Source of the DNA: a virus
DNA length: 37,835 nucleotides
Virus record (IMG/VR): IMGVR_UViG_3300025529_000020
Coordinates: 1-37,835 of that record
Reading direction: 5' to 3' (one strand)
This document shows positions 13,885-35,642 of the stretch, piece by piece (position 1 is the stretch's first letter; each line of letters begins with the position of its first letter). The notes beneath the pieces are model-generated. The model saw nothing but the letters and a program-made list of their open reading frames with translations. It was not told the DNA's origin and made no database searches. Both the position numbers and the translations under genes were made by a program.

Positions 13885-13910
13885 AGTGTTACAGGTCCCG
13901 GTGCGCGCTC
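13885..13910 (-). promoter_or_regulatory. Conserved motif site 1 (GTTACAGGTCC ... GCGCGC), candidate phage promoter/operator
   Basis: One of five copies of the same motif, all in intergenic DNA upstream of minus-strand operons. Confidence 0.5.
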
Positions 13911-13917
13911 TCCTAGA

Positions 13918-14018
13918 GGGTGACGAGTGACGAGTTTTTTCGTAGTTTTAGATTGTTCTATATGTATGTATATAGAGCAATATAAAACTAATGTTTAAAT
14001 CGTCATTCGTCATCACTC
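13918..14018. repeat. AT-rich island A, bounded by inverted repeats GTGACGAGTGACGAG / TCGTCATTCGTCATCAC
   Basis: About 65 bp of AT-rich DNA with nested palindrome CTATAT...ATATAG in an otherwise GC-rich genome, flanked by imperfect 15-bp inverted arms. Confidence 0.6.
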
Positions 14019-14030
14019 ACCCCATCTCCT

Positions 14031-15635
14031 CTACTCCGCGTAGACCGCTCCCTCACTCTCCGCGCTCTCCCCAGCGTCTGCCCATTCGATCCGCAGTCGG
14101 TGCGGACCAACGGTGCGTGGCTGTCCGAGTCTTACCGGGTAGATGATGACCCTGTTGATCGCGAGGTGGAGTAGGTCCCGCACCAGCGCTCGCTGTCCGC
14201 GTTCCACTGCGTCCCGCATCGCATCTGCCAGCGTTTCCGGATCGTCCACGAACCCCAAGTCCAACGTTGCTTGTGACCGCGCGATAGCGGCCTGCAGCTC
14301 TCGGAGTTCCGCGGACAGTGACCGCATCTCCGAGACGAACAGCTCCGGAGCGTCCTCGTAGGCTCCTGCCCTGAACGCGTCGTGGAGTCTTTGACGTACG
14401 GTCTCGATTTCTTGGATCCGTGCGCGCTTCGCCGCGATTTCTTCGGACTCGCTTGGTTGTTGTCGAGCTGTCCACCGCTCAGCGATGATCAGTGCGAGCA
14501 TGTCCGTGGGTTCAAGCGCGGTTATTCGGTTGAGCCACTCGGCGATCACGAGCTGCTCTGCGCGTTCTCTGGTGATCCGCGCTGGTGCGGGACATGTGGC
14601 TATCGCGGACGTGACGGATGCGCACACCTGTTGCACACCGGATGCTGGTGCGGAGCGTCCGCATGTGCCACACACCGCGATCCCGGTCAGGATGTGTTTT
14701 CTGTGTCTCGCAGTGGGGCGTACGATGCGGCGACGTGTAGAAAACGTGGTGATGTTCTTTGTGAGCCTTTCGAGGAGCTGCTCTCGCTCGTCCGGCGTGA
14801 GCACACCTTCCCCGATGCTGACGAGTCGACCTTCCTCGTCACGGTAAGGTTCTACCAGGTGGGATTTGCCGTTGTTTGCGCGGCCCGCTACCTGCAGCCC
14901 TGCGATTGCGGGGTTGGTGATCAGGCTGATGTAGGTCGTGACGTACCAGATGCCTCCACTGGGGCCGCGGATGCCGAGTTCGTTCTGTTCAGCAACCACG
15001 CTACGCGCTGAGCGTCCGCCGAGAATCTGTTCCGCTCCCCAACGCAGGACCTGGGCACGCGTTCGACCGTCTTCGGTCGGTGTGGTGTAGTCGGGACGTA
15101 CCTTCCGTGTTTTCGGATCTAAGAGGAGTCCCCACGGCACGCTTCCCCCGATCCATTCTCCGTCTCGGCGTTGCCGGGCCTTGCTGATGTGGATTCTGTG
15201 GGATAGGTCAACGCTGTACTGTCGAGCACGCTCCGCCTCATCGATGATGTGGCGACGGTCATGCTCGTCCAGCGTGTCGTAGCGGTCCCAGTAGAAGATG
15301 ACCCGGTGCTTGCCCAGCATGGGGAGTACGTCTTCTGCGCCTCGACGAGTAAGGCGGTCCAGCCTGAAAACCCACAGTGCCTCGACTTCTCCGCGTTGTA
15401 GTGCGGCAAGTGCCTTTCGGAACACCGGCCGTTCCCGGTCCGCGTATGCGGAGCCTAATTCTCGCCACACGTGCCGTACTTGGCTGCCTACCTGTGCTGC
15501 CCAGTGCCGGCCGATTTCCTCCTGTTCCCGGATGGAGACTTCGCGTAGGCGGTCGCCTTCGGAGAGAACCCGGGATTTCCTCACGTACAGGTCCACCGTT
15601 TTTGGTGGTGGGAGTAGTTGGGAGTGGGGGAACAC
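14031..15635 (-). CDS. Large serine recombinase (phage integrase)
   Basis: N-terminal resolvase-type catalytic motif VDLYVRKSRVLSEG...RLDRLTRR, central recombinase domain, Cys-rich zinc ribbon (CGTCGR...C...C) and coiled-coil C-terminus; GTG at 15635 with GGAGG RBS. Confidence 0.8.
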   Translation of the reverse strand: MFPHSQLLPPPKTVDLYVRKSRVLSEGDRLREVSIREQEEIGRHWAAQVGSQVRHVWRELGSAYADRERPVFRKALAALQRGEVEALWVFRLDRLTRRGAEDVLPMLGKHRVIFYWDRYDTLDEHDRRHIIDEAERARQYSVDLSHRIHISKARQRRDGEWIGGSVPWGLLLDPKTRKVRPDYTTPTEDGRTRAQVLRWGAEQILGGRSARSVVAEQNELGIRGPSGGIWYVTTYISLITNPAIAGLQVAGRANNGKSHLVEPYRDEEGRLVSIGEGVLTPDEREQLLERLTKNITTFSTRRRIVRPTARHRKHILTGIAVCGTCGRSAPASGVQQVCASVTSAIATCPAPARITRERAEQLVIAEWLNRITALEPTDMLALIIAERWTARQQPSESEEIAAKRARIQEIETVRQRLHDAFRAGAYEDAPELFVSEMRSLSAELRELQAAIARSQATLDLGFVDDPETLADAMRDAVERGQRALVRDLLHLAINRVIIYPVRLGQPRTVGPHRLRIEWADAGESAESEGAVYAE

Positions 15636-15668
15636 GAACGCCTCCAAGTGTGTGCTGATGTGCGTAGG

Positions 15669-15674
15669 AGTATA
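15669..15674 (-). promoter_or_regulatory. -10-like hexamer TATACT upstream of integrase start
   Basis: TATACT about 27 nt upstream of the GGAGG RBS, downstream of a terminator. Confidence 0.35.
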
Positions 15675-15705
15675 GCGACCTTGTGGAGTGTTCGTGTTTG
15701 GGCAT

Positions 15706-15744
15706 GAAAAAAGACCCGTTCGCCGTTGGTTGGTGAACGGGTCT
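15706..15744 (-). terminator. Intrinsic terminator (GACCCGTTC...GAACGGGTC stem followed by TTTTTT)
   Basis: 9-bp GC-rich stem and U6 tract on the minus strand; lies inside the over-extended ORF-track integrase ORF. Confidence 0.7.
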
Positions 15745-15762
15745 TGGTCCGCTGATTGGTGC

Positions 15763-15853
15763 GGGACCATCCCCACATGCGTGGGGAGCAGGTTTTGAGG
15801 TCCGTCTAGAGTAAATCCAGGCCGGGACCATCCCCACATGCGTGGGGAGCAGG
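15763..15853. repeat. Two 30-bp direct repeats GGGACCATCCCCACATGCGTGGGGAGCAGG (15763-15792 and 15824-15853), each with an internal hairpin
   Basis: Exact 30-bp duplication with 61-bp period; each copy contains palindrome CCCCAC-ATGC-GTGGGG. Confidence 0.8.
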
Positions 15854-19602: not shown

Positions 19603-20556
19603 TTACGCGGCTGCCAGCTCGACTACTACCCGCCTCAGCTTTCTCAGCGCAGCGGCCTTGAGGGAACGTACACGTCCGGGATCGATTCCCATGATGTGCG
19701 CGGTCTCGGCGACACTGAGTTCCGGACCGCCCAGTCCGGTCAGGTGTACCAGTGCCTCACGCTCCCGGGGGGACACGTGATCGAGCAGACGATGCACGAG
19801 GTCCCGAGTTTCCACACTGGCTAGTGCAGCGGCCGAGCGGTGGCACTCCGCCGTGTCCCCGATGGTCTGCGTGGCGCTCTCGTCACACAGTTCCGACACC
19901 GGGGTATCCACGGACACATAATGTAGGGCTTCGTGGATGGCATCGAACTGTGCGTAGGACAGACCACGTGCGGTTTTGTCGTCTAGCTGCTGTGCCACAT
20001 CTAGCCCTTCCCGCTCCCAGCGTTCAATACGGCGGTCCAGGATGGCGGCAGCCATGTCATCTCCGGAGTCCGCCATGTCCTGCAGTTCTCGGCCGGTCAA
20101 CCCCTCACGGTGGGCCCATTCGCGTGCGAGTACCGGGTCGTGTCCACACGCTTCCATGGCTCTCCAGTAGCGGTGCTGTGCGGACGAGGAGATGCGGAAC
20201 GGGGAGCTGGCTACAGCGGCCTCCCTCACAGCGTTCTGGATGTGGCGATACGCCACGGTCATAGGTTCTGCAGAACCATCCGGGTCGTAGTCTCGCAGAA
20301 CCTCCACCAGCGCCATTAGCGCGGCCTGGTAGAGGTCCGCGTACTCCGCACTACGCTGGTAGTTTCTGACCAGGTGGTGGATCTGGTCTTCGTAACGTGC
20401 GGCAAGGATGACAAGCCCTTCGTCTCCGTACGCGGGGAGCTGACGGTTGGGGACGTGATCAAGGCCCAGACGTTCTTCGTAGGCACGTGCGGCGGTGCGG
20501 ACTGTGGCACGGACGATGTGTGCGGGGGATCTGGTGGCGATCAGTTCATCCAACAT
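19603..20556 (-). CDS. Phage-encoded sigma-70 family RNA polymerase sigma factor
   Basis: Region 2-like segment DLYQAALMALVEVLRDYDP and region 4-like HTH LSVAETAHIMGIDPGRVRSLKAAALRKLRR. Confidence 0.75.
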   Translation of the reverse strand: MLDELIATRSPAHIVRATVRTAARAYEERLGLDHVPNRQLPAYGDEGLVILAARYEDQIHHLVRNYQRSAEYADLYQAALMALVEVLRDYDPDGSAEPMTVAYRHIQNAVREAAVASSPFRISSSAQHRYWRAMEACGHDPVLAREWAHREGLTGRELQDMADSGDDMAAAILDRRIERWEREGLDVAQQLDDKTARGLSYAQFDAIHEALHYVSVDTPVSELCDESATQTIGDTAECHRSAAALASVETRDLVHRLLDHVSPREREALVHLTGLGGPELSVAETAHIMGIDPGRVRSLKAAALRKLRRVVVELAAA

Positions 20557-28786: not shown

Positions 28787-29614
28787 CTAGGTTCGCCGCT
28801 GTGTGCCAGTCAACAACTGTCCGCCAGTCGCCAACGGGGATCCCAACACTGCCCGTGCCTCCTCACGCTGCCACGTGAGTGCCTCACGGAGCGCCAGAAA
28901 CACCTGATGCATTTCTGCATCCACTCGGACCGGTACCAGTGACCACCGCTCCGGGGTCACGTGGAGCACTGCGCCGCCATCCACACGCGGCATGTCCCGG
29001 GAAGTACCGTCTACGCCGATCAGGCGATCTGCGTACGCGTACGCGGACAACTGCAACGCAACAGTGGGATACACGTCACGGGACGTTTTCCAGTCCACGA
29101 TGATCAGATGCGGAGTCCCTGATCTGTCCGGGGTGGGGGTACGGTCCGGAGCCAGCCAGACACGCAGCAGAGCATCAAAGCTGCCTGCGTACCGAAACCT
29201 GTCCGACCACACCACCTCCTCAGCTGCCACGAGCTCAGGACGTACCGTGTCCAGAAACTCCGCAAAATGATTGCGGTACGGGACGAGGTCGTGCTCCACG
29301 TAACGCGGAGACTCCCCCCTGAGCATGCGCTCAAACAGATCGTGAGCTTTGCTGCCCAGCTCAGCTCGTGCTTGCGTATACCGCCGTGGCGCGGCCTTGA
29401 GCAGGTCTATCGCGGCGGTGGGGTCTGTCTGGACCAGGCCTTGTACCGTATTCCAGTTCTCCACCGCGTACGTTGCCACAGTTTTCGCGGCCCACGGTGG
29501 TAAGAAAGGCTTGTCCAGGACGCTGATGATAGAGGTTACCCCAGGCACTTTGGTGCCAGTGTCGGGGTCCACATACCAGCGCGCTCCCCCACGGGTGAGG
29601 GTTCGGATGGTCAT
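28787..29614 (-). CDS. PD-(D/E)xK (RecB/Cas4-like) exonuclease
   Basis: Motifs D...LIIVDWKTSR and QLSAYAYA (QxxxY); ATG at 29614 with AAAGGAGC RBS. Confidence 0.6.
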   Translation of the reverse strand: MTIRTLTRGGARWYVDPDTGTKVPGVTSIISVLDKPFLPPWAAKTVATYAVENWNTVQGLVQTDPTAAIDLLKAAPRRYTQARAELGSKAHDLFERMLRGESPRYVEHDLVPYRNHFAEFLDTVRPELVAAEEVVWSDRFRYAGSFDALLRVWLAPDRTPTPDRSGTPHLIIVDWKTSRDVYPTVALQLSAYAYADRLIGVDGTSRDMPRVDGGAVLHVTPERWSLVPVRVDAEMHQVFLALREALTWQREEARAVLGSPLATGGQLLTGTQRRT

Positions 29615-29635
29615 ATGTCGCTCCTTTCGCTGTAT

Positions 29636-29672
29636 TCCTAGTTACAGGTCCGCAGCGTGGGGAGCGCGCGTA
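29636..29672 (-). promoter_or_regulatory. Conserved motif site 3 (GTTACAGGTCC ... GGGGAGCGCGCG) with adjacent A5T5 tract
   Basis: First copy of a tandemly duplicated ~117-bp promoter-like unit upstream of the exonuclease gene. Confidence 0.5.
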
Positions 29673-29752
29673 CCGTGGCAGAAAAATTTTTGGTCGACGT
29701 GCTCCGCACCTGGTGAGGGTTCGGATCGCCACGTCGCCCCTTCCGGATCTGT

Positions 29753-29790
29753 CTCTAGTTACAGGTCCGCGGCGGTGGGAGCGCGCGGGT
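29753..29790 (-). promoter_or_regulatory. Conserved motif site 4 (tandem duplicate of site 3)
   Basis: Second copy: GTTACAGGTCC at 29758-29768, GCGCGC at 29781-29786, A4T4 tract at 29798-29808. Confidence 0.5.
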
Positions 29791-29883
29791 CGCGGCAGAA
29801 AATTTTCTGACCGACGTAGCTGCAGCGGGATGGGCACGGAGAGTGAGGGCATGCCCTACGCGGAGTAGAGGAGATGGGGGAGT

Positions 29884-29977
29884 GGTGACGAGTGACGATT
29901 TAGACCTTGTTTTTGTAGTGCTATAGGAGAACCCATAGAACAATGCAAAAACAGGGTCTACATCGTCACTCGTCACC
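29884..29977. repeat. AT-rich island B, bounded by perfect 16-bp inverted repeats GGTGACGAGTGACGAT / ATCGTCACTCGTCACC
   Basis: Perfect 16-bp inverted arms, inner inverted repeat AGACCTTGTTTTTG/CAAAAACAGGGTCT, AT-rich centre. Confidence 0.7.
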
Positions 29978-30048
29978 CCTGGACGAAGAAACCCCGCCAT
30001 CCGTGTCCGGACAGCGGGGCTTCTACGTCGTGTTACTACACCGCGTCG

Positions 30049-30732
30049 CTACCCCAGCGCGGAGCGCAGTACGGCCACGCTTTCTTCAAGCGACACTATC
30101 GCGGCCTGGATCGTTTCCCGCGGCTTACCGGTCAGCGCCACGGTGGCAGACACCGCATCCCTTGCCGCGGTCACGTTCCGTACGTCCTCAGCCAGCTGGC
30201 TCACCGCGCGCACCACATCCTCCGGTGGGCTGTCGGGGTGTACTGTGATGGCCTCTAGTCGACGTAGCGCAGTTTCCGCGCGCTGCCGCTGGCGCTCTCG
30301 GCGTTCCGCCTGCCGTTCTTTCGGCGGTGTCGGGGTGATGCCGTAGTGCGCCAGCGCTTCCGGCGTGTACAGTCCGTTAGCGCGCATGTAGTCGATCCGC
30401 AGCGCTGCCACGTGGTATCTGATCAGCGACTGTAGAGACGCTTCGGAGTCGCTGGGGATGCCGGCTTTCTCATACAGCTGCTGGACTGCTTCCCGGTATC
30501 CCGGGGACGTGCCGCACAGATCTGGCCAACCATCCTTATCCCGGTAGCGTGCCCGCAGATGCAGCACTACCAGCGCTAGGTTGCGTGCTGTTTGTGTCGC
30601 ACGGCCCTGCAGTCTCACATAGTCGCGCACCAGTTTTGCGCCACGGTCGATGAGCTCGTGTACAGGTGCGTCATCCTGGAACACCGTGGCCTCGTCATCT
30701 CGCGGTGGAGTTACCAGCTGTAGTTGTGTCAT
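30049..30732 (-). CDS. Hypothetical protein (227 aa)
   Basis: ATG at 30732; Arg/Glu-rich helical segment ERQAERRERQRQRAE. Confidence 0.45.
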   Translation of the reverse strand: MTQLQLVTPPRDDEATVFQDDAPVHELIDRGAKLVRDYVRLQGRATQTARNLALVVLHLRARYRDKDGWPDLCGTSPGYREAVQQLYEKAGIPSDSEASLQSLIRYHVAALRIDYMRANGLYTPEALAHYGITPTPPKERQAERRERQRQRAETALRRLEAITVHPDSPPEDVVRAVSQLAEDVRNVTAARDAVSATVALTGKPRETIQAAIVSLEESVAVLRSALG

Positions 30733-30760: not shown

Positions 30761-30795
30761 GAAAGACCCCGTGACGAGATTCACGGGGTCTTTCG
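30761..30795. terminator. Terminator-like hairpin (GACCCCGTG...CACGGGGTC flanked by T-rich runs on both strands)
   Basis: 9-bp GC stem with AAAG/CTTTCG flanks, just after the stop of the HExxH peptidase gene. Confidence 0.55.
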
Positions 30796-30804
30796 TCCGT
30801 GTTG

Positions 30805-31464
30805 TCATAGGTCGTCTGCGGAACGGTACAGCTCCCCACACTGCGTACATGCCACGGTCTGCGCGTTCAGCACAGTGCGGGACAGCCATAGTGGTCGTTC
30901 CGGAACACAGCGGCACACCGCCTTCGGGCGACGGTTGCTGCTGTGCGGGGTACGTTTCGTTCCGGTGTTCCGTTCCGCGTTCCGTTCCGGATCGGCGTTC
31001 TCCCACTCGCTGCGGCCCACTGCGGCTTCCGCCACGCACGCGGCCCACTCCCCGATCTCGGTGGGGAGCCTCATGTCCGCGTACCCCACATCTTGAGGGG
31101 GGTTGCCACCGCGCCACTCCAGTCCCATGTGTTCCGCTAGTGCGCGGAACCGCGAGTTATGATATCGGCCGCGCTTGGAGGTGTCCGCAACCCCGAGAGC
31201 GTGTGCAAGGGCATGTGCCGCTTCATGGGCAACTTGGCACACCACCTCACGAGGGGGGCGAGCTAGCGCATCGGGGAGTGTCTGCAGCACGTGTGTGTCG
31301 CCAAGAGAAGGCGTGAACCGCAACCACGCGTTCGTGCGTCCGATGGTGGGGACTACGTTCACGGTGACTGCGGGTAGTTGTGGTTCTCGTTCTCGCAGCA
31401 GGTCCCAGATGCGGCGTAGGGTGCGCGCGGTGACTTGCTCTGGGCTCATCTGTGTGGTTGACAT
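30805..31464 (-). CDS. HExxH zinc metallopeptidase (SprT-like or ImmA/IrrE-like) with C-terminal Cys-rich zinc ribbon
   Basis: VAHEAAHALAHALG (HExxH) and C-terminal CRCVPERP...CTQCGELY; ATG at 31464 with GGGGGA RBS (start uncertain, the ORF extends to 31524). Confidence 0.5.
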   Translation of the reverse strand: MSTTQMSPEQVTARTLRRIWDLLREREPQLPAVTVNVVPTIGRTNAWLRFTPSLGDTHVLQTLPDALARPPREVVCQVAHEAAHALAHALGVADTSKRGRYHNSRFRALAEHMGLEWRGGNPPQDVGYADMRLPTEIGEWAACVAEAAVGRSEWENADPERNAERNTGTKRTPHSSNRRPKAVCRCVPERPLWLSRTVLNAQTVACTQCGELYRSADDL

Positions 31465-31561
31465 GCTGACATCCCCCATTCCTATGTGTGGAGTACAGTC
31501 TATCGGTTGCGCAGTATGGGGCAACGGCCCCGGGAAGCGTTACCCGGGGCCGCTGTCGACG

Positions 31562-32401
31562 TTACGCCGGAACTGTCGTGGCCAGTTTCCGTCGCGCGTC
31601 GCGTAGCACGTTCCTTCCCCAGCGGTCCGTGCGTCCGTAGCGGGTCCCGATTTCCGCTCCGGTGAGCGTGGTTCCGTTCCGGAGCTGTTCCGCGACCCAT
31701 TCGACAGCGGAACGGCGTTCCGCGCTGTGCGGGGGTACCACGGACACCGGAACGGTCGTAGGGGCTCCCTCCTCCACTACCGGAACGCGGACATTCCGTT
31801 CCTCGTCCCGCTGTTGTTCCTCGTTCCGCTCTTCGTTCCGCGCTGTTCCGCTCTTCGTTCCGCTGCTGTTCCGTTCCTCGTTCCGTTCCTCGTCCCCCGG
31901 TTGTTCCGTGTTCCGTTCCTCGTCCCGTTCCCCATTCCGCTGTTGTTCCTCGTCCCGTTCCTCGTTCCGCTCTTCGTTCCGTTCCTCGTTCCGCTGCTGT
32001 TCCGCCCTGTTCCGTCTACCTGCAGCAAGGGCCACCGACGCAACGACCACTAGTCCATCTACAGACAGTGGCAGCAGGATGGCCACAAGCTCCGACTCCC
32101 CGTACTGGAGCAGGAGCCCGCGCATGTGACCGTAGGAGACCACGGCCGCGGCCAGCGCTACGAGGAAAGCTCCCACCCACTCAACTGCGGACAGCAGTCC
32201 ACGCGGACGCTGTCCACGAACCATCATCTCTGCGACCAACAGCAGCGCTACCGGTGCCCATGCCGCAAACAGCATGGCACCGATGTCTGTTCCGTCCGCG
32301 TTCCGTTCCGCGGCGTGTGCCACGTTCGCGGCGATGCTGGCTCCTGCGCCGAGTAGGAACGCTGTCCAGGGGATGGCGTTTGATCTCGGTTTTCCGCTCA
32401 C
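31562..32401 (-). CDS. Membrane protein with central EERN tandem-repeat low-complexity region (start uncertain)
   Basis: Three or more hydrophobic helices, then (EERN)n repeats, then Arg-rich C-terminus; first possible start after the upstream gene stop is GTG at 32401. Confidence 0.45.
   Translation of the reverse strand: MSGKPRSNAIPWTAFLLGAGASIAANVAHAAERNADGTDIGAMLFAAWAPVALLLVAEMMVRGQRPRGLLSAVEWVGAFLVALAAAVVSYGHMRGLLLQYGESELVAILLPLSVDGLVVVASVALAAGRRNRAEQQRNEERNEERNEERDEEQQRNGERDEERNTEQPGDEERNEERNSSGTKSGTARNEERNEEQQRDEERNVRVPVVEEGAPTTVPVSVVPPHSAERRSAVEWVAEQLRNGTTLTGAEIGTRYGRTDRWGRNVLRDARRKLATTVPA
31790..32015. repeat. Imperfect tandem array of GTTCC(G/T)-containing units (about 12-bp period) encoding EERN repeats
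   Basis: Plus strand reads TTCCGTTCCTCGTTCCGCT... repeatedly; translates as EERNEERNEERDEE on the minus strand. Confidence 0.8.
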
Positions 32402-32514
32402 TCGTGGGTTCTCCGTTCCGTTCCGCTGTTTCCGTTCCGGGGCTTCCGTTCCGCCAGCGGTCCGGGAATTCCGTTCCGCTGGCGTTCCTCTACTTCCGTT
32501 CCGCTGGTGTTCCT
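32402..32514. repeat. Iteron-like array: five direct copies of TTCCGTTCCGC(T/C)(G/A)G (minus-strand CCAGCGGAACGGAA) in intergenic DNA
   Basis: Copies at about 32414, 32431, 32445, 32470 and 32494 between the stop of gene 32515..32937 and the start of the membrane protein gene. Confidence 0.7.
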
Positions 32515-32937
32515 CTACTCCCGCTCCGCCACTCGGTGACCGTGTTCCGTGGCCTCCACGTAAACCGCTCCAGCCTTCCGAAACGCCCTCAGCATCCCCC
32601 GCTCCAAGAGCGCAGTGATATGGCGTGCGGTTACTCCTGCAGCGCGGCACGCACTCGGCGACATGTGCAGCGCTCCGTTCTTGATGATGGTGCGCAGTGC
32701 GTTCCGCTGCTTCGCCGAGAGTGTGCGCGCGTTGAGCCGTCGTCCGCGACGCACTGCTTCCGCGGCCTGTTCGGGGGTTGTATACCGGAACGATAGATAA
32801 CCCACCCCCAACAGGTAGGCCCTCCACGGCCGAGCGGGGTTGTCGCCACGCCAAGAGACCAGGCCGATGATCTCGGGGCCGTTCTCACTGAGAACCACGC
32901 GCTCTGGGCGGGACGGGCGGTTGTTCTGTGTGGTCAT
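32515..32937 (-). CDS. Hypothetical protein (140 aa), possibly DNA-binding
   Basis: ATG at 32937 with GGAGG RBS downstream of terminator H3; Arg/Lys-rich. Confidence 0.45.
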   Translation of the reverse strand: MTTQNNRPSRPERVVLSENGPEIIGLVSWRGDNPARPWRAYLLGVGYLSFRYTTPEQAAEAVRRGRRLNARTLSAKQRNALRTIIKNGALHMSPSACRAAGVTARHITALLERGMLRAFRKAGAVYVEATEHGHRVAERE

Positions 32938-32967: not shown

Positions 32968-33006
32968 TGAAAAAGCCCCGGGATTTCCCCGGGGCCGATC
33001 GGCCGG
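32968..33006 (-). terminator. Conserved terminator H3 (GCCCCGGGA..TCCCCGGGGC hairpin + CUUUUUCAU) with adjacent GGCCGATCGGCC palindrome
   Basis: Same hairpin core and CCGATCGG element as H1. Confidence 0.6.
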
Positions 33007-33353: not shown

Positions 33354-33383
33354 AATATAGCAGACTTGCTCAGTACTGCGCAA
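33354..33383 (-). promoter_or_regulatory. Sigma-70-like promoter (TTGCGC - 18 nt - TATATT)
   Basis: Minus-strand TTGCGC AGTACTGAGCAAGTCTGC TATATT; spacer nearly identical to the promoter at 18496-18524. Confidence 0.6.
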
Positions 33384-33393
33384 CCAATAGGGC

Positions 33394-33435: not shown

Positions 33436-33975
33436 CTATCCACCACGCAACAGCGCATCCACCGCCTCGTAGAGTTCCGGGATGTCTCCGGAGTTGGGCA
33501 GTACGGCGTCCGCGAGATCCGCGGGAATAGCGGTCTCGGACGGATGCGTGTTCGCAGGGCCCACACCAGGACGCTGTACCCACACGAGGGAGAACCCTCG
33601 ACTTCGCAGCGCAAGTGCTTCGTTGCGGTACCGCACATCGGTCACCACCACGGGACCGGACAGTGCATCCAGTCGGCGTAGCGCGTGCTCCACCCACACC
33701 GATTCGCCGAGTGAGTCCCGGACTCCCGCACCTAGGCCTTGGAGAAGTTCGCGCACTTCCGGGATCGTCCTCTTCACACGGTCCCAGCCGTACGCCTCGA
33801 CTGCGTCTCGCAGGCGTAGCCCATCCCTCGTGATGAGTGGGTTCGTACTCAGCAGCACACTTCGGACGGGATCCGCGAACGCTACACGCGTGTATCCGCG
33901 GCACGCTAGGTACTCGGCGATGGTGTCCTTGCCGCTGCCTGCATATCCGATGAGGCCGATTTTTGACCGGTTCAC
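33436..33975 (-). CDS. P-loop nucleotide kinase, dNMP kinase-like
   Basis: Walker A GLIGYAGSGKDT near the N-terminus (phage dNMP kinases carry SGKDT); GTG start with GGAGGTG RBS. Confidence 0.55.
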   Translation of the reverse strand: MNRSKIGLIGYAGSGKDTIAEYLACRGYTRVAFADPVRSVLLSTNPLITRDGLRLRDAVEAYGWDRVKRTIPEVRELLQGLGAGVRDSLGESVWVEHALRRLDALSGPVVVTDVRYRNEALALRSRGFSLVWVQRPGVGPANTHPSETAIPADLADAVLPNSGDIPELYEAVDALLRGG

Positions 33976-34266: not shown

Positions 34267-34551
34267 TCACTCACGGGTTGTTAGCGCATGCTCTGTGGCA
34301 TGCACTATCTGCCACTCCCGCACGGCAGCCACCTCACCGCGCAGGAGATGGACATCGTCCGCCACCGCATCCACTCGCGCGCGGAGCGCGGCGATGGCCT
34401 CACGGGTCGCTGTCCCTTCTCGGGTTGCAGTGCGGCCCGATTTGCGCGCAGTCATATACGCGGGACCTGCGGTGATCGCTGCCGCCAAGATGGCAGCGGT
34501 CCCGGCAATCAGCTCCGGTCCCATGCGGATCACGTCCCCCACACCTGGCAC
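34267..34551 (-). CDS. Lysis-associated membrane protein (holin-like, one transmembrane helix)
   Basis: 94 aa with N-terminal hydrophobic helix LIAGTAAILAAAITAGPAY; overlaps the endolysin 3' end. Confidence 0.45.
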   Translation of the reverse strand: MPGVGDVIRMGPELIAGTAAILAAAITAGPAYMTARKSGRTATREGTATREAIAALRARVDAVADDVHLLRGEVAAVREWQIVHATEHALTTRE

Positions 34552-35642
34552 GTGGTCTTAGCGCTGCGCAGCGGTACCGGAGCTGGGCCGTAGTGCACCA
34601 CGCGGACCCGTGCCACATGGCTCTTGGACAGCCGCTCGGCGATGGCGTAGGTCATGTGGTGGTCGCCCCCGCCGTGCCGAGTGGTGTGGATGGGACCAGC
34701 CATTGTTTGGGTCACGGACGTTGGCAGTCGAGCACTCAGCGCGGCACGAGTCTGTGGCCCATACACCCCGTCCGCGTCGATCCCCAGAGCGTGCTGACAG
34801 GCCACCAGACCGGCCGTGGTGTTCGCACCCCACACACCGTCCGCACCATCAGGACCGACCGAAAACCCGAGTGCGATCAGCGCTTCCTGAATTTGGCGCA
34901 CCGCTGGTCCCGTCGCGCCTTGGCGGTACACACCGGTAGGGAGCACGTAGCTGTCTCTGCGGTAATGACTGACCCGCATTTGCACCTCACAGCCCTCGGG
35001 CAGCGCTTTACCGTCCAGAACCACGCCGGCCGAGAGCATGTAATGTGCCGGGCCCTTTACCACGTCGCGGAAGGTGCCAGTTTTGCCGGACGTTCGGGTA
35101 AACGGAATGGTCGTCCATTTCCCGGGCTCAAGGATCAGTTCCTCATTCCGCGTAAACCATACAAACTCGGGCATGTCATCCCCCACATTGCTGTACACCG
35201 GCCGAACATATCCATACGCCGCGGACGCGGAACGGGTCTTTTTATATACCCCGTCGCCATTCCAATAATTGCCACCCCACGAGCCGGACGTGTTGCCGCC
35301 AATCGTGGTCACCGTGTCCCCGTTGACGGCCACTACGATTTCGACGTGCGTCCCGCCATTAGGGCCGTACATAGCCAAATCGCCCACCTGGGGAGTGGAG
35401 TGGAAACGTCCACGGCTACGCCCCCATGCCACTTGTTGCAGGCATGATGCAGTAAGGGGGAAGTCCTTGTCCGGCCTCCCGCCTGCCTGCAGAAACACCC
35501 AACAGGTGAATGTCGCGCACCATGGTTGACCCTGGGACCATTCGAGCCCGGGAACCGCAGGGGAGTACTTCTGGATGTTGTTCCCGGTTTCGCGGTACCC
35601 CAACTCGCCGTGCGCGATTTCGATCACACGCTTAACGTCCAT
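34530..35642 (-). CDS. Endolysin: N-terminal CHAP-type cysteine peptidase with C-terminal peptidoglycan-binding domain
   Basis: Cys region QPWCATFTCWVF, GDLAMYGPNGGTHVEIVVA (Cys/His pattern), C-terminal PG-binding repeat GPAVRQIQEALIALGF...GVYGPQTRAAL. Confidence 0.65.
   Translation of the reverse strand: MDVKRVIEIAHGELGYRETGNNIQKYSPAVPGLEWSQGQPWCATFTCWVFLQAGGRPDKDFPLTASCLQQVAWGRSRGRFHSTPQVGDLAMYGPNGGTHVEIVVAVNGDTVTTIGGNTSGSWGGNYWNGDGVYKKTRSASAAYGYVRPVYSNVGDDMPEFVWFTRNEELILEPGKWTTIPFTRTSGKTGTFRDVVKGPAHYMLSAGVVLDGKALPEGCEVQMRVSHYRRDSYVLPTGVYRQGATGPAVRQIQEALIALGFSVGPDGADGVWGANTTAGLVACQHALGIDADGVYGPQTRAALSARLPTSVTQTMAGPIHTTRHGGGDHHMTYAIAERLSKSHVARVRVVHYGPAPVPLRSAKTTCQVWGT

Follow-up and report, generated by a model that had tools for sequence, protein, structure and literature searches.

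"SprT-like protease" is already a routine annotation in actinobacterial phages, among which no member has a demonstrated function. Here we analyse a gene for such a protein, a putative SprT-like zinc metalloprotease encoded on the minus strand at positions 30805-31464 of IMG/VR virus record IMGVR_UViG_3300025529_000020, whose 37,835 nucleotides, taken as a whole, are called the window below. The window is a phiC31-like temperate siphophage with a large serine integrase, and the nearest described relatives of its protease are SAMYPH_31 of phage Samy and the SprT-like protease of the Arthrobacter cluster AZ phages (Elezi gp44, Lizalica gp46).

[quoted passage not shown] It differs in its active-site motif, HDAAH, and the window phage has three extra genes, including one for a DUF2637 membrane protein, between the kinase and protease genes. 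Samy is the one phage with transcriptome data, in which the homologue is expressed in the prophage state together with a c-type repressor: SAMYPH_31 and SAMYPH_32 are among nine prophage genes that fall in the most-expressed class in ten of ten non- or poorly-inducing conditions (PMC11302927, S3 Table), their read counts being similar and the gene upstream of SAMYPH_31 almost silent (PMC11302927). The cluster AZ protease shares the HExxH motif, a His-x-x-F downstream of it and, at the C-terminus, a putative DNA-binding tail with Cys residues, and its top structural match is 4JIU, as for the window protease (bioRxiv 10.1101/2025.05.26.655371). It also comes from a temperate, serine-integrase, sigma-factor-encoding phage, and Elezi gp44, a SEA-PHAGES "SprT-like protease", aligns to the window protease with an hhalign probability of 95% (E = 3e-8). 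It belongs, however, to another sub-family (~19% identical), and its gene lies between those for the sigma factor and the integrase, away from the c-like gene.

Outside phages, SPRTN and Wss1 are only ~10-17% identical to the window protease, which lacks their ubiquitin, SUMO, p97 and PCNA modules. The minigluzincins proabylysin (4JIU) and projannalysin (4JIX) are archaeal zymogens of ~105 amino acids with Glu as third zinc ligand, a self-inhibiting C-terminal tail and no zinc ribbon; the window protease, in contrast, has 219 amino acids, two domains and His102 as candidate third ligand, so that the core fold alone is shared. ImmA (ICEBs1, phage phi105) and IrrE/PprI (COG2856 / Peptidase_M78) are HExxH anti-repressor proteases encoded beside a repressor and present before induction, and the window gene resembles theirs in being an HExxH metalloprotease gene that adjoins a repressor gene and whose product is probably there before induction.

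The protease, its family and its predicted fold

The gene and its product comprise the following parts:

30805..31464, minus strand: SprT-like zinc metalloprotease gene, 219 amino acids; putative zincin domain (~1-156), ERN-rich linker and zinc ribbon
31159..31227, minus strand: active-site codons, H80-E81-A-A-H84 (31213-31227) and the candidate third zinc ligand H102 in YHNSRF (31159-31161)
30925..30996, minus strand: low-confidence linker, residues 157-180, with PERNAERNTGT encoded by CGGAACGGAAC repeats; length variable in close relatives
30838..30915, minus strand: zinc ribbon, C184-x-C186 ... C206-x-x-C209 (CRCVPERP...CTQCGELY)

The open reading frame, whose coordinates include the stop codon, carries the VAHEAAHALAHALG motif, and its product is identical in a public gene call (P0001). 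A ribosome-binding site (GGGGGA) stands just 5' of the ATG at 31464, and in-frame ATGs also occur 15 nt upstream and 15 nt downstream. All motif residues are kept among 12 close relatives (77-100% identical), E81 being invariant in those that cover the motif (P0012 has an internal gap there), while the ERN segment shows indels. Pairwise ratios of nonsynonymous to synonymous substitution (dN/dS) of 0.10-0.24 among six close orthologues with DNA denote purifying selection. The protease gene is real and under selection.

An exhaustive profile search retrieved 1211 cluster representatives at E <= 1e-3, 279 of them also passing E <= 1e-10, and 121 diverse members, ~25-40% identical to the query, were aligned. 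In this alignment H84, C186, C206 and C209 are invariant, H102 is kept in 120 of the 121 sequences, H80 and C184 in 119 each and E81 in 111 (92%), giving the family signature LHEAAHALA-x6-DTSRxGRYHNxxF...KAxCxC-x19-CxxC. The claim of a sequence-only reading of this DNA, that the gene joins an HExxH motif to a C-terminal Cys cluster, therefore held, and with it the conservation of the motif in homologues. That reading had left the choice between an SprT-like and an ImmA/IrrE-like zincin open, and here only the former half survived. The Pfam SprT-like family (PF10263) is matched weakly by 73 of the 121 homologues, and a PF10263 assignment had been precomputed for five members of the family; Peptidase_M78, in contrast, gave no match for the protease at E <= 1 in Pfam, nor for any of the 121 homologues at E <= 0.01. 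PHROGs places the protease in phrog_6361, of unknown function (E = 2.6e-14), and the NCBIfam search was empty. The Pfam matches to TetR_C_15 and PreAtp-grasp were set aside, being below cut-off and overlapping the HExxH helix, with TetR_C found in only 2 of the 121 homologues.

An AlphaFold2 model built from the same alignment has a mean predicted local distance difference test (pLDDT) score of 92.8, with residue blocks within 161-180 at 72 and 63. It consists of an N-terminal helix, a three-stranded sheet, the HExxH helix (71-90), more helices, the linker and a small beta-rich C-terminal module, in which short beta strands are predicted at 181-183 and 191-193 of the zinc ribbon. The predicted alpha/beta fold with its HExxH helix is that of a zincin, as the sequence-only reading had anticipated, and its nearest neighbours are the minigluzincins, human Spartan and Wss1, not IrrE/ImmA. 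The structural comparison table of the model reads:

Proabylysin (4jiu), 7.7
Spartan (6mdx), 7.7
Projannalysin, 7.5
HtpX, 7.0
Wss1, 6.8
CapP, 5.4
ArdC, 4.5
IrrE/PprI, 4.4

Foldseek against viral models (BFVD) returned an Attoomi "Peptidase" and many phage "SprT-like" proteins, and against the PDB only marginal matches. The layout of an ArdC-type anti-restriction metalloprotease, in which an N-terminal ArdC domain binding single-stranded DNA (ssDNA) precedes a C-terminal protease, was not found. Judged by its sequence signature and modelled fold, the protein is a putative divergent branch of the SprT-like / Spartan / Wss1 zincins, and we regard its identity as an SprT-type metalloprotease as highly probable.

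As to function, we propose with moderate confidence, taking identity and mechanism jointly, a nucleic-acid-tethered SprT-type protease that degrades DNA-stuck or crosslinked proteins. The model presents an HExxH and downstream His metal site on a confidently predicted zincin fold, followed by a flexible linker and a four-Cys ribbon. The gene itself is autonomous: it sits in an accessory slot beside a repressor gene and is bracketed by hairpins, as these flanking features show:

31497..31551, minus strand: upstream control region of the protease gene, with a hairpin (31526-31551) after the membrane-protein gene and then a promoter-like site
30761..30794, minus strand: intrinsic-terminator-like hairpin with a 14-bp stem, between the protease and c-like genes; kept in the related loci L006 and L007

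The promoter-like site reads TTGCCC (31524-31519), 16 nt, TAGACT (31502-31497), and from it the gene would be transcribed independently; like its Samy homologue, the protease would probably be made in the lysogen. By analogy with SPRTN, the zinc ribbon would anchor the enzyme on nucleic acid, and DNA-bound or DNA-crosslinked proteins would be what the protease degrades. According to two papers (PMC7826251, PMC7534798), DNA that combines single- and double-stranded features activates SPRTN, whose cutting is then promiscuous. The likeliest targets of the phage enzyme would be DNA-bound or covalently trapped proteins generally, and candidates in the prophage would include the repressor as well as covalent adducts of a trapped recombinase or topoisomerase; the adjoining repressor is a possible target and not a required one.

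Several points weigh against this proposal. The Pfam SprT-like match of the protease is weak (E = 1.7e-3; 18.7 bits, below the 25.6 cut-off), and no PDB relative could be detected by sequence, searches with the single protein and with the 121-sequence profile alike yielding no meaningful match. Because the zinc ribbon matches no curated zinc-ribbon or nucleic-acid-binding model, DNA binding is something we infer for it. The promoter-like site was read by eye, agrees with 8 of 12 consensus positions, was left unflagged by a scan and, kept in L006, is deleted in L007. About 8% of the family lacks the catalytic Glu, among them P0020, P0024 and, as nearest outgroups, P0015 and P0016; the Samy homologue (L002 4959-5585) has HDAAH, and that of Attoomi (L003 4962-5504) has HVATH and no zinc ribbon. 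Finally, the location of a host paralogue among genes for ribosome and RNA functions could be a pointer to RNA instead of DNA.

The accessory slot and the neighbouring candidate repressor gene

All the genes characterised in the window lie on the minus strand and are given in the order of transcription (Pfam, PHROGs):

34530-35642, minus strand: endolysin
33436-33975, minus strand: deoxynucleoside monophosphate (dNMP) kinase, followed by a 97-aa gene
32974-32996: terminator-like hairpin before the 140-aa gene
32515..32937, minus strand: 140-aa gene of unknown function, 84-85% identical in L006/L007, with a weak winged-helix hint only; first gene after the hairpin
31562..32401, minus strand: DUF2637 membrane protein (Pfam E = 1.8e-10) with an E/R/N-rich linker and a C-terminal helix-turn-helix-like tail; immediate upstream neighbour of the protease gene
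30049..30732, minus strand: homologue of phiC31 repressor c, 227 aa, candidate immunity repressor; directly downstream of the protease gene
28787-29614, minus strand: exonuclease, followed by primase, DNA polymerase and endonuclease VII
19603-20556, minus strand: sigma factor
14031-15839, minus strand: large serine integrase, followed by HNH endonuclease, small and large terminase, portal and tape-measure protein

The phiC31 backbone is the same (endolysin - gp51 - dNMP kinase - c - gp54 - exonuclease - ... - primase) without the insert, which puts the protease gene, together with the three genes upstream of it, in an accessory slot just before the repressor gene. For the membrane protein, a 430-aa open reading frame (31562-32854) was rejected as over-extended, since it overlaps the 140-aa gene by 340 nt; the GTG at 32401 (280 codons with stop) is the favoured start, as out-of-frame indels lie upstream of it in relatives and the L007 frame starts there too. 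The window has no tRNA genes. Megablast with the 8 kb around the protease gene matched none of 50,697 phage records, and the tblastn hits for the protease were only phiAsp2, Samy and Attoomi.

This autonomous layout of promoter-like site, gene and terminator, in a variable slot that is empty in phiC31, would also suit a lysogeny-expressed accessory gene, or "moron", whose product degrades proteins of a superinfecting phage or of host defence and so protects the lysogen or the phage. The Samy homologue is lysogen-expressed, and the Samy authors list morons as one possible reading (PMC11302927). PADLOC, however, found no match for the protease, for its neighbours or for two distant homologues, no counter-defence family was matched, and it would be unusual for a defence gene to belong, as this family does in Streptomyces, to the conserved chromosomal core as well. 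We consider such a role unlikely.

The sequence-only reading had noted that no canonical CI-type repressor was obvious, and on this point it was mistaken, since a repressor candidate adjoins the protease gene. The 227-aa product of 30049-30732 matches the Pfam family PF25746, "Streptomyces phage repressor protein c", with 37.2 bits against a cut-off of 27, aligns to residues 390-515 of phiC31 c and occupies the exact position of gene c (dNMP kinase - ... - c - exonuclease); its orthologue in L102 carries a precomputed PF25746 assignment. It differs from c in length, c having 683 aa, and matches only positions 85-163 of the 352 in the profile. Between the protease and the N-terminal 305 residues of phiC31 c there is no similarity.

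Proteins homologous to the c-like one, under the label "hypothetical protein", were also seen between dNMP kinase and exonuclease genes in phages of Arthrobacter (including cluster AZ) and Microbacterium, in 49 phage records, for example Pixelle gp26 (Arthrobacter, L004 3411-3989) and Percival gp26 (Microbacterium, L005 3465-4061). In cluster AZ no immunity repressor had been identified, according to the preprint (bioRxiv 10.1101/2025.05.26.655371).

The position of the protease gene directly upstream of a c-type gene, in the window clade and in Samy, and of a GntR-type regulator gene in Attoomi, raises the reading of an anti-repressor protease analogous to ImmA/IrrE, made in the lysogen together with the c repressor and cleaving the DNA-bound repressor on a signal such as ssDNA, so that the prophage is induced. 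The order in Samy is dNMP kinase - small gene - SAMYPH_31 (SprT-like) - SAMYPH_32 (c-like putative immunity repressor) - exonuclease, and in Attoomi dNMP kinase - small gene - gp24 (the homologue) - gp25 (GntR winged-helix domain) - exonuclease. In Samy both genes of the pair are expressed together under all ten conditions that induce poorly or not at all, and for phiC31-type repressors we know of no induction mechanism. An obligate pairing of protease and repressor, of the ImmA/IrrE type, was nevertheless not found. In L007 and L099 a single shared ancestral deletion has removed the c-like gene, of which a frameshifted remnant is left (L007 6667-7124; L099 773-1356), yet their protease is intact, with a dN/dS of 0.22 over a dS of 0.37 between them; L006, L102 and L103 retain the c-like gene. 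Conversely, no protease gene stands next to the c-like gene in Arthrobacter (cluster AZ included) and Microbacterium phages, where the order is dNMP kinase - c-like - exonuclease, and phiC31 likewise has c without an adjoining protease. In phiAsp2-like phages (~60 kb) the protease gene follows a cluster of small divergent genes and precedes an unrelated Pas44-like gene, with no c-like gene. The 14-bp-stem terminator between the protease and c-like genes, the HDAAH of Samy and the HVATH of Attoomi with its missing ribbon, the core host paralogue, and a fold and profile matches that differ from M78/ImmA all stand against this reading too, which we judge distinctly unlikely. The unconventional immunity or anti-repressor module of the sequence-only reading thus retains some support as an immunity region, through the expression of the Samy pair, whereas the idea of a dedicated anti-repressor is weakened.

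A more specific conjecture, drawn by analogy and a long shot in our estimate, is that the protease would serve as a DNA-activated, RecA-independent inducer of phiC31-type prophages: it would be present but silent in the lysogen along with the c repressor until junctions of single- and double-stranded DNA formed after damage, which also activate Spartan, prompted it to strip the DNA-bound repressor.

Two observations concern the loci just described. The L007/L099 clade could be naturally repressor-less (perhaps virulent) derivatives, or could rely on another regulator. In the phiAsp2-like phages the protease gene is preceded by Pas42, and in some relatives the two form fusion proteins of 393 and 592 aa with a Pas42-like N-terminal region (loci: L010 5001-6182; L011 5001-6779; L001 4313-4903). 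Pas42 has no recognisable domain, and its fusion suggests a functional link to the protease.

The catalytic glutamate and the host paralogue

In 10 of the 121 homologues E81 is replaced (by Ala in six, and by Met, Val, Asp and Thr once each), whereas the three His and four Cys are kept. Since ~8% of the family has lost the Glu but kept the metal ligands, part of the family role may not need catalysis. The catalytic Glu alone has been lost repeatedly (HDAAH, HVATH, HAAAH), the three His ligands being kept and the zinc ribbon mostly retained, and from their sequences these Glu-less variants look like pseudo-proteases.

If this were carried over to the window protein, it would be a zinc-scaffold binding protein without need for catalysis, acting as a DNA- or protein-binding regulator or as a decoy for the host paralogue, and the Glu-less state of the nearest outgroups and of the Samy and Attoomi homologues fits such a role. 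E81 is, however, invariant in the close relatives covering the motif and present in 92% of the family, and the whole protein is under purifying selection, which makes a purely non-catalytic role improbable here.

Relatives of the protease were also found on bacterial chromosomes. A scan of one genome per species located them in at least 502 species genomes, and among the best 80 loci, which were kept, nearly all are from Actinomycetota. Of these 80, 53 represent one conserved chromosomal gene of Streptomyces and Streptacidiphilus, situated between an aminoacyl-tRNA-synthetase-like gene and rpsP-KH-rimM-trmD-rplS-lepB, directly upstream of rpsP. It is exemplified by L050 5815-6444 (HEAVH...DTSRAGRYHN...CDC...CGGC), with 52 similar loci (L028, L031, L035, L037-L091), and is probably S. 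coelicolor SC2E1.07, which is cited in the phiAsp2 record; no literature on the function of the Streptomyces paralogue was found. When the neighbouring proteins of the window were searched by tblastn against the 80 family-bearing genomic loci nothing was found, and outside phages the neighbourhood is therefore not conserved.

An RNA- or ribosome-associated protease, as the place of this paralogue upstream of rpsP-KH-rimM-trmD-rplS in 53 of the best 80 loci might imply, is highly improbable for the phage protein, because conservation within one genus may be mere vertical inheritance and the phage copies sit among DNA-metabolism and lysogeny genes. We count the conserved Streptomyces paralogue instead for a general role of the SprT-type family, in keeping with the tethered protease that we favour.

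Repeat elements and the significance of the family

The sequence-only reading had also remarked on ERNAERN repeats and CGGAACGGAAC copies in the protease gene. They are present, PERNAERNTGT (residues 159-169) deriving from two coding-strand CGGAACGGAAC copies (plus-strand positions 30967-30977 and 30979-30989) and a tandem repeat lying at 30953-30989 within the linker region, but they are the edge of a far larger, strand-specific GGAAC cluster centred on the DUF2637 membrane-protein gene. On the coding strand this cluster comprises ~50 copies within 30.9-32.7 kb (30897-32705), against ~2 per kb elsewhere. Its CGGAACGGAA units are densest at 31790-32010 and 32402-32514, the latter being the densest non-coding part:

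32402..32514, minus strand: non-coding array of AGCGGAACGGAA-type repeats

Copies fall in each of the three codon phases, giving ER, RN and GT, and the AGCGGAACGGAA array differs among relatives by 11-, 5- and 2-nt indels and is therefore untranslated. Being kept in L006 and L007 and absent from the Samy, Attoomi and phiAsp2-like loci, the cluster is a DNA-level feature of this phage group. These data point to a DNA-level repeat (a binding-site array, perhaps iterons) rather than a protein repeat, of which the ERN stretch in the protease linker is the edge. GGAAC resembles -35 elements of the extracytoplasmic-function type, and the phage encodes its own sigma factor (19603-20556), to which the cluster might be linked.

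Three further elements were noted nearby or elsewhere in the window. A 25-nt sequence beginning CTATYGGTTGCGCAGTA occurs twice in opposite orientation, at 31500-31524, where it overlaps the promoter-like site of the protease gene, and at 33366-33390, in the gap between the dNMP kinase terminator and the 97-aa gene; a 12-mer taken from it showed no significant repetition beyond these two copies. Two homologous palindromic elements of ~120 bp (29865-29990 and 13900-14030), each made of GGTGACGAGTGACGA, an AT-rich palindromic core of ~65 nt and TCGTCACTCGTCACC, lie respectively in the gap between the c-like gene and the exonuclease operon and just past the integrase stop codon, before the HNH and terminase genes. 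They are candidates for operators or promoters, comparable to the inverted repeats conserved in phiC31. Lastly, the exonuclease leader, ribosome-binding site and first codons are tandemly duplicated at 29580-29817 in ~117-bp units, each with a CAGAAAATTTTCTG-type palindrome that is confined to this duplicated leader; L007 has a single copy.

To the existing annotation of phage SprT-like proteases the present analysis adds a large branch with a sharp signature, a core Streptomyces paralogue and the repeated loss of only the catalytic Glu, while the c-like family marks repressor candidates in the Arthrobacter cluster AZ phages. If the conjecture of a RecA-independent inducer were true, such an inducer would be an evolutionarily independent analogue of ImmA/IrrE, and the HDAAH and HVATH proteins of Samy and Attoomi would then be derived binders or dampers of the same switch. 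Possible substrates of the protease are trapped recombinase or topoisomerase adducts, a repressor or a competitor's protein, and finding the substrate would account for the presence of such an enzyme in temperate serine-integrase phages.

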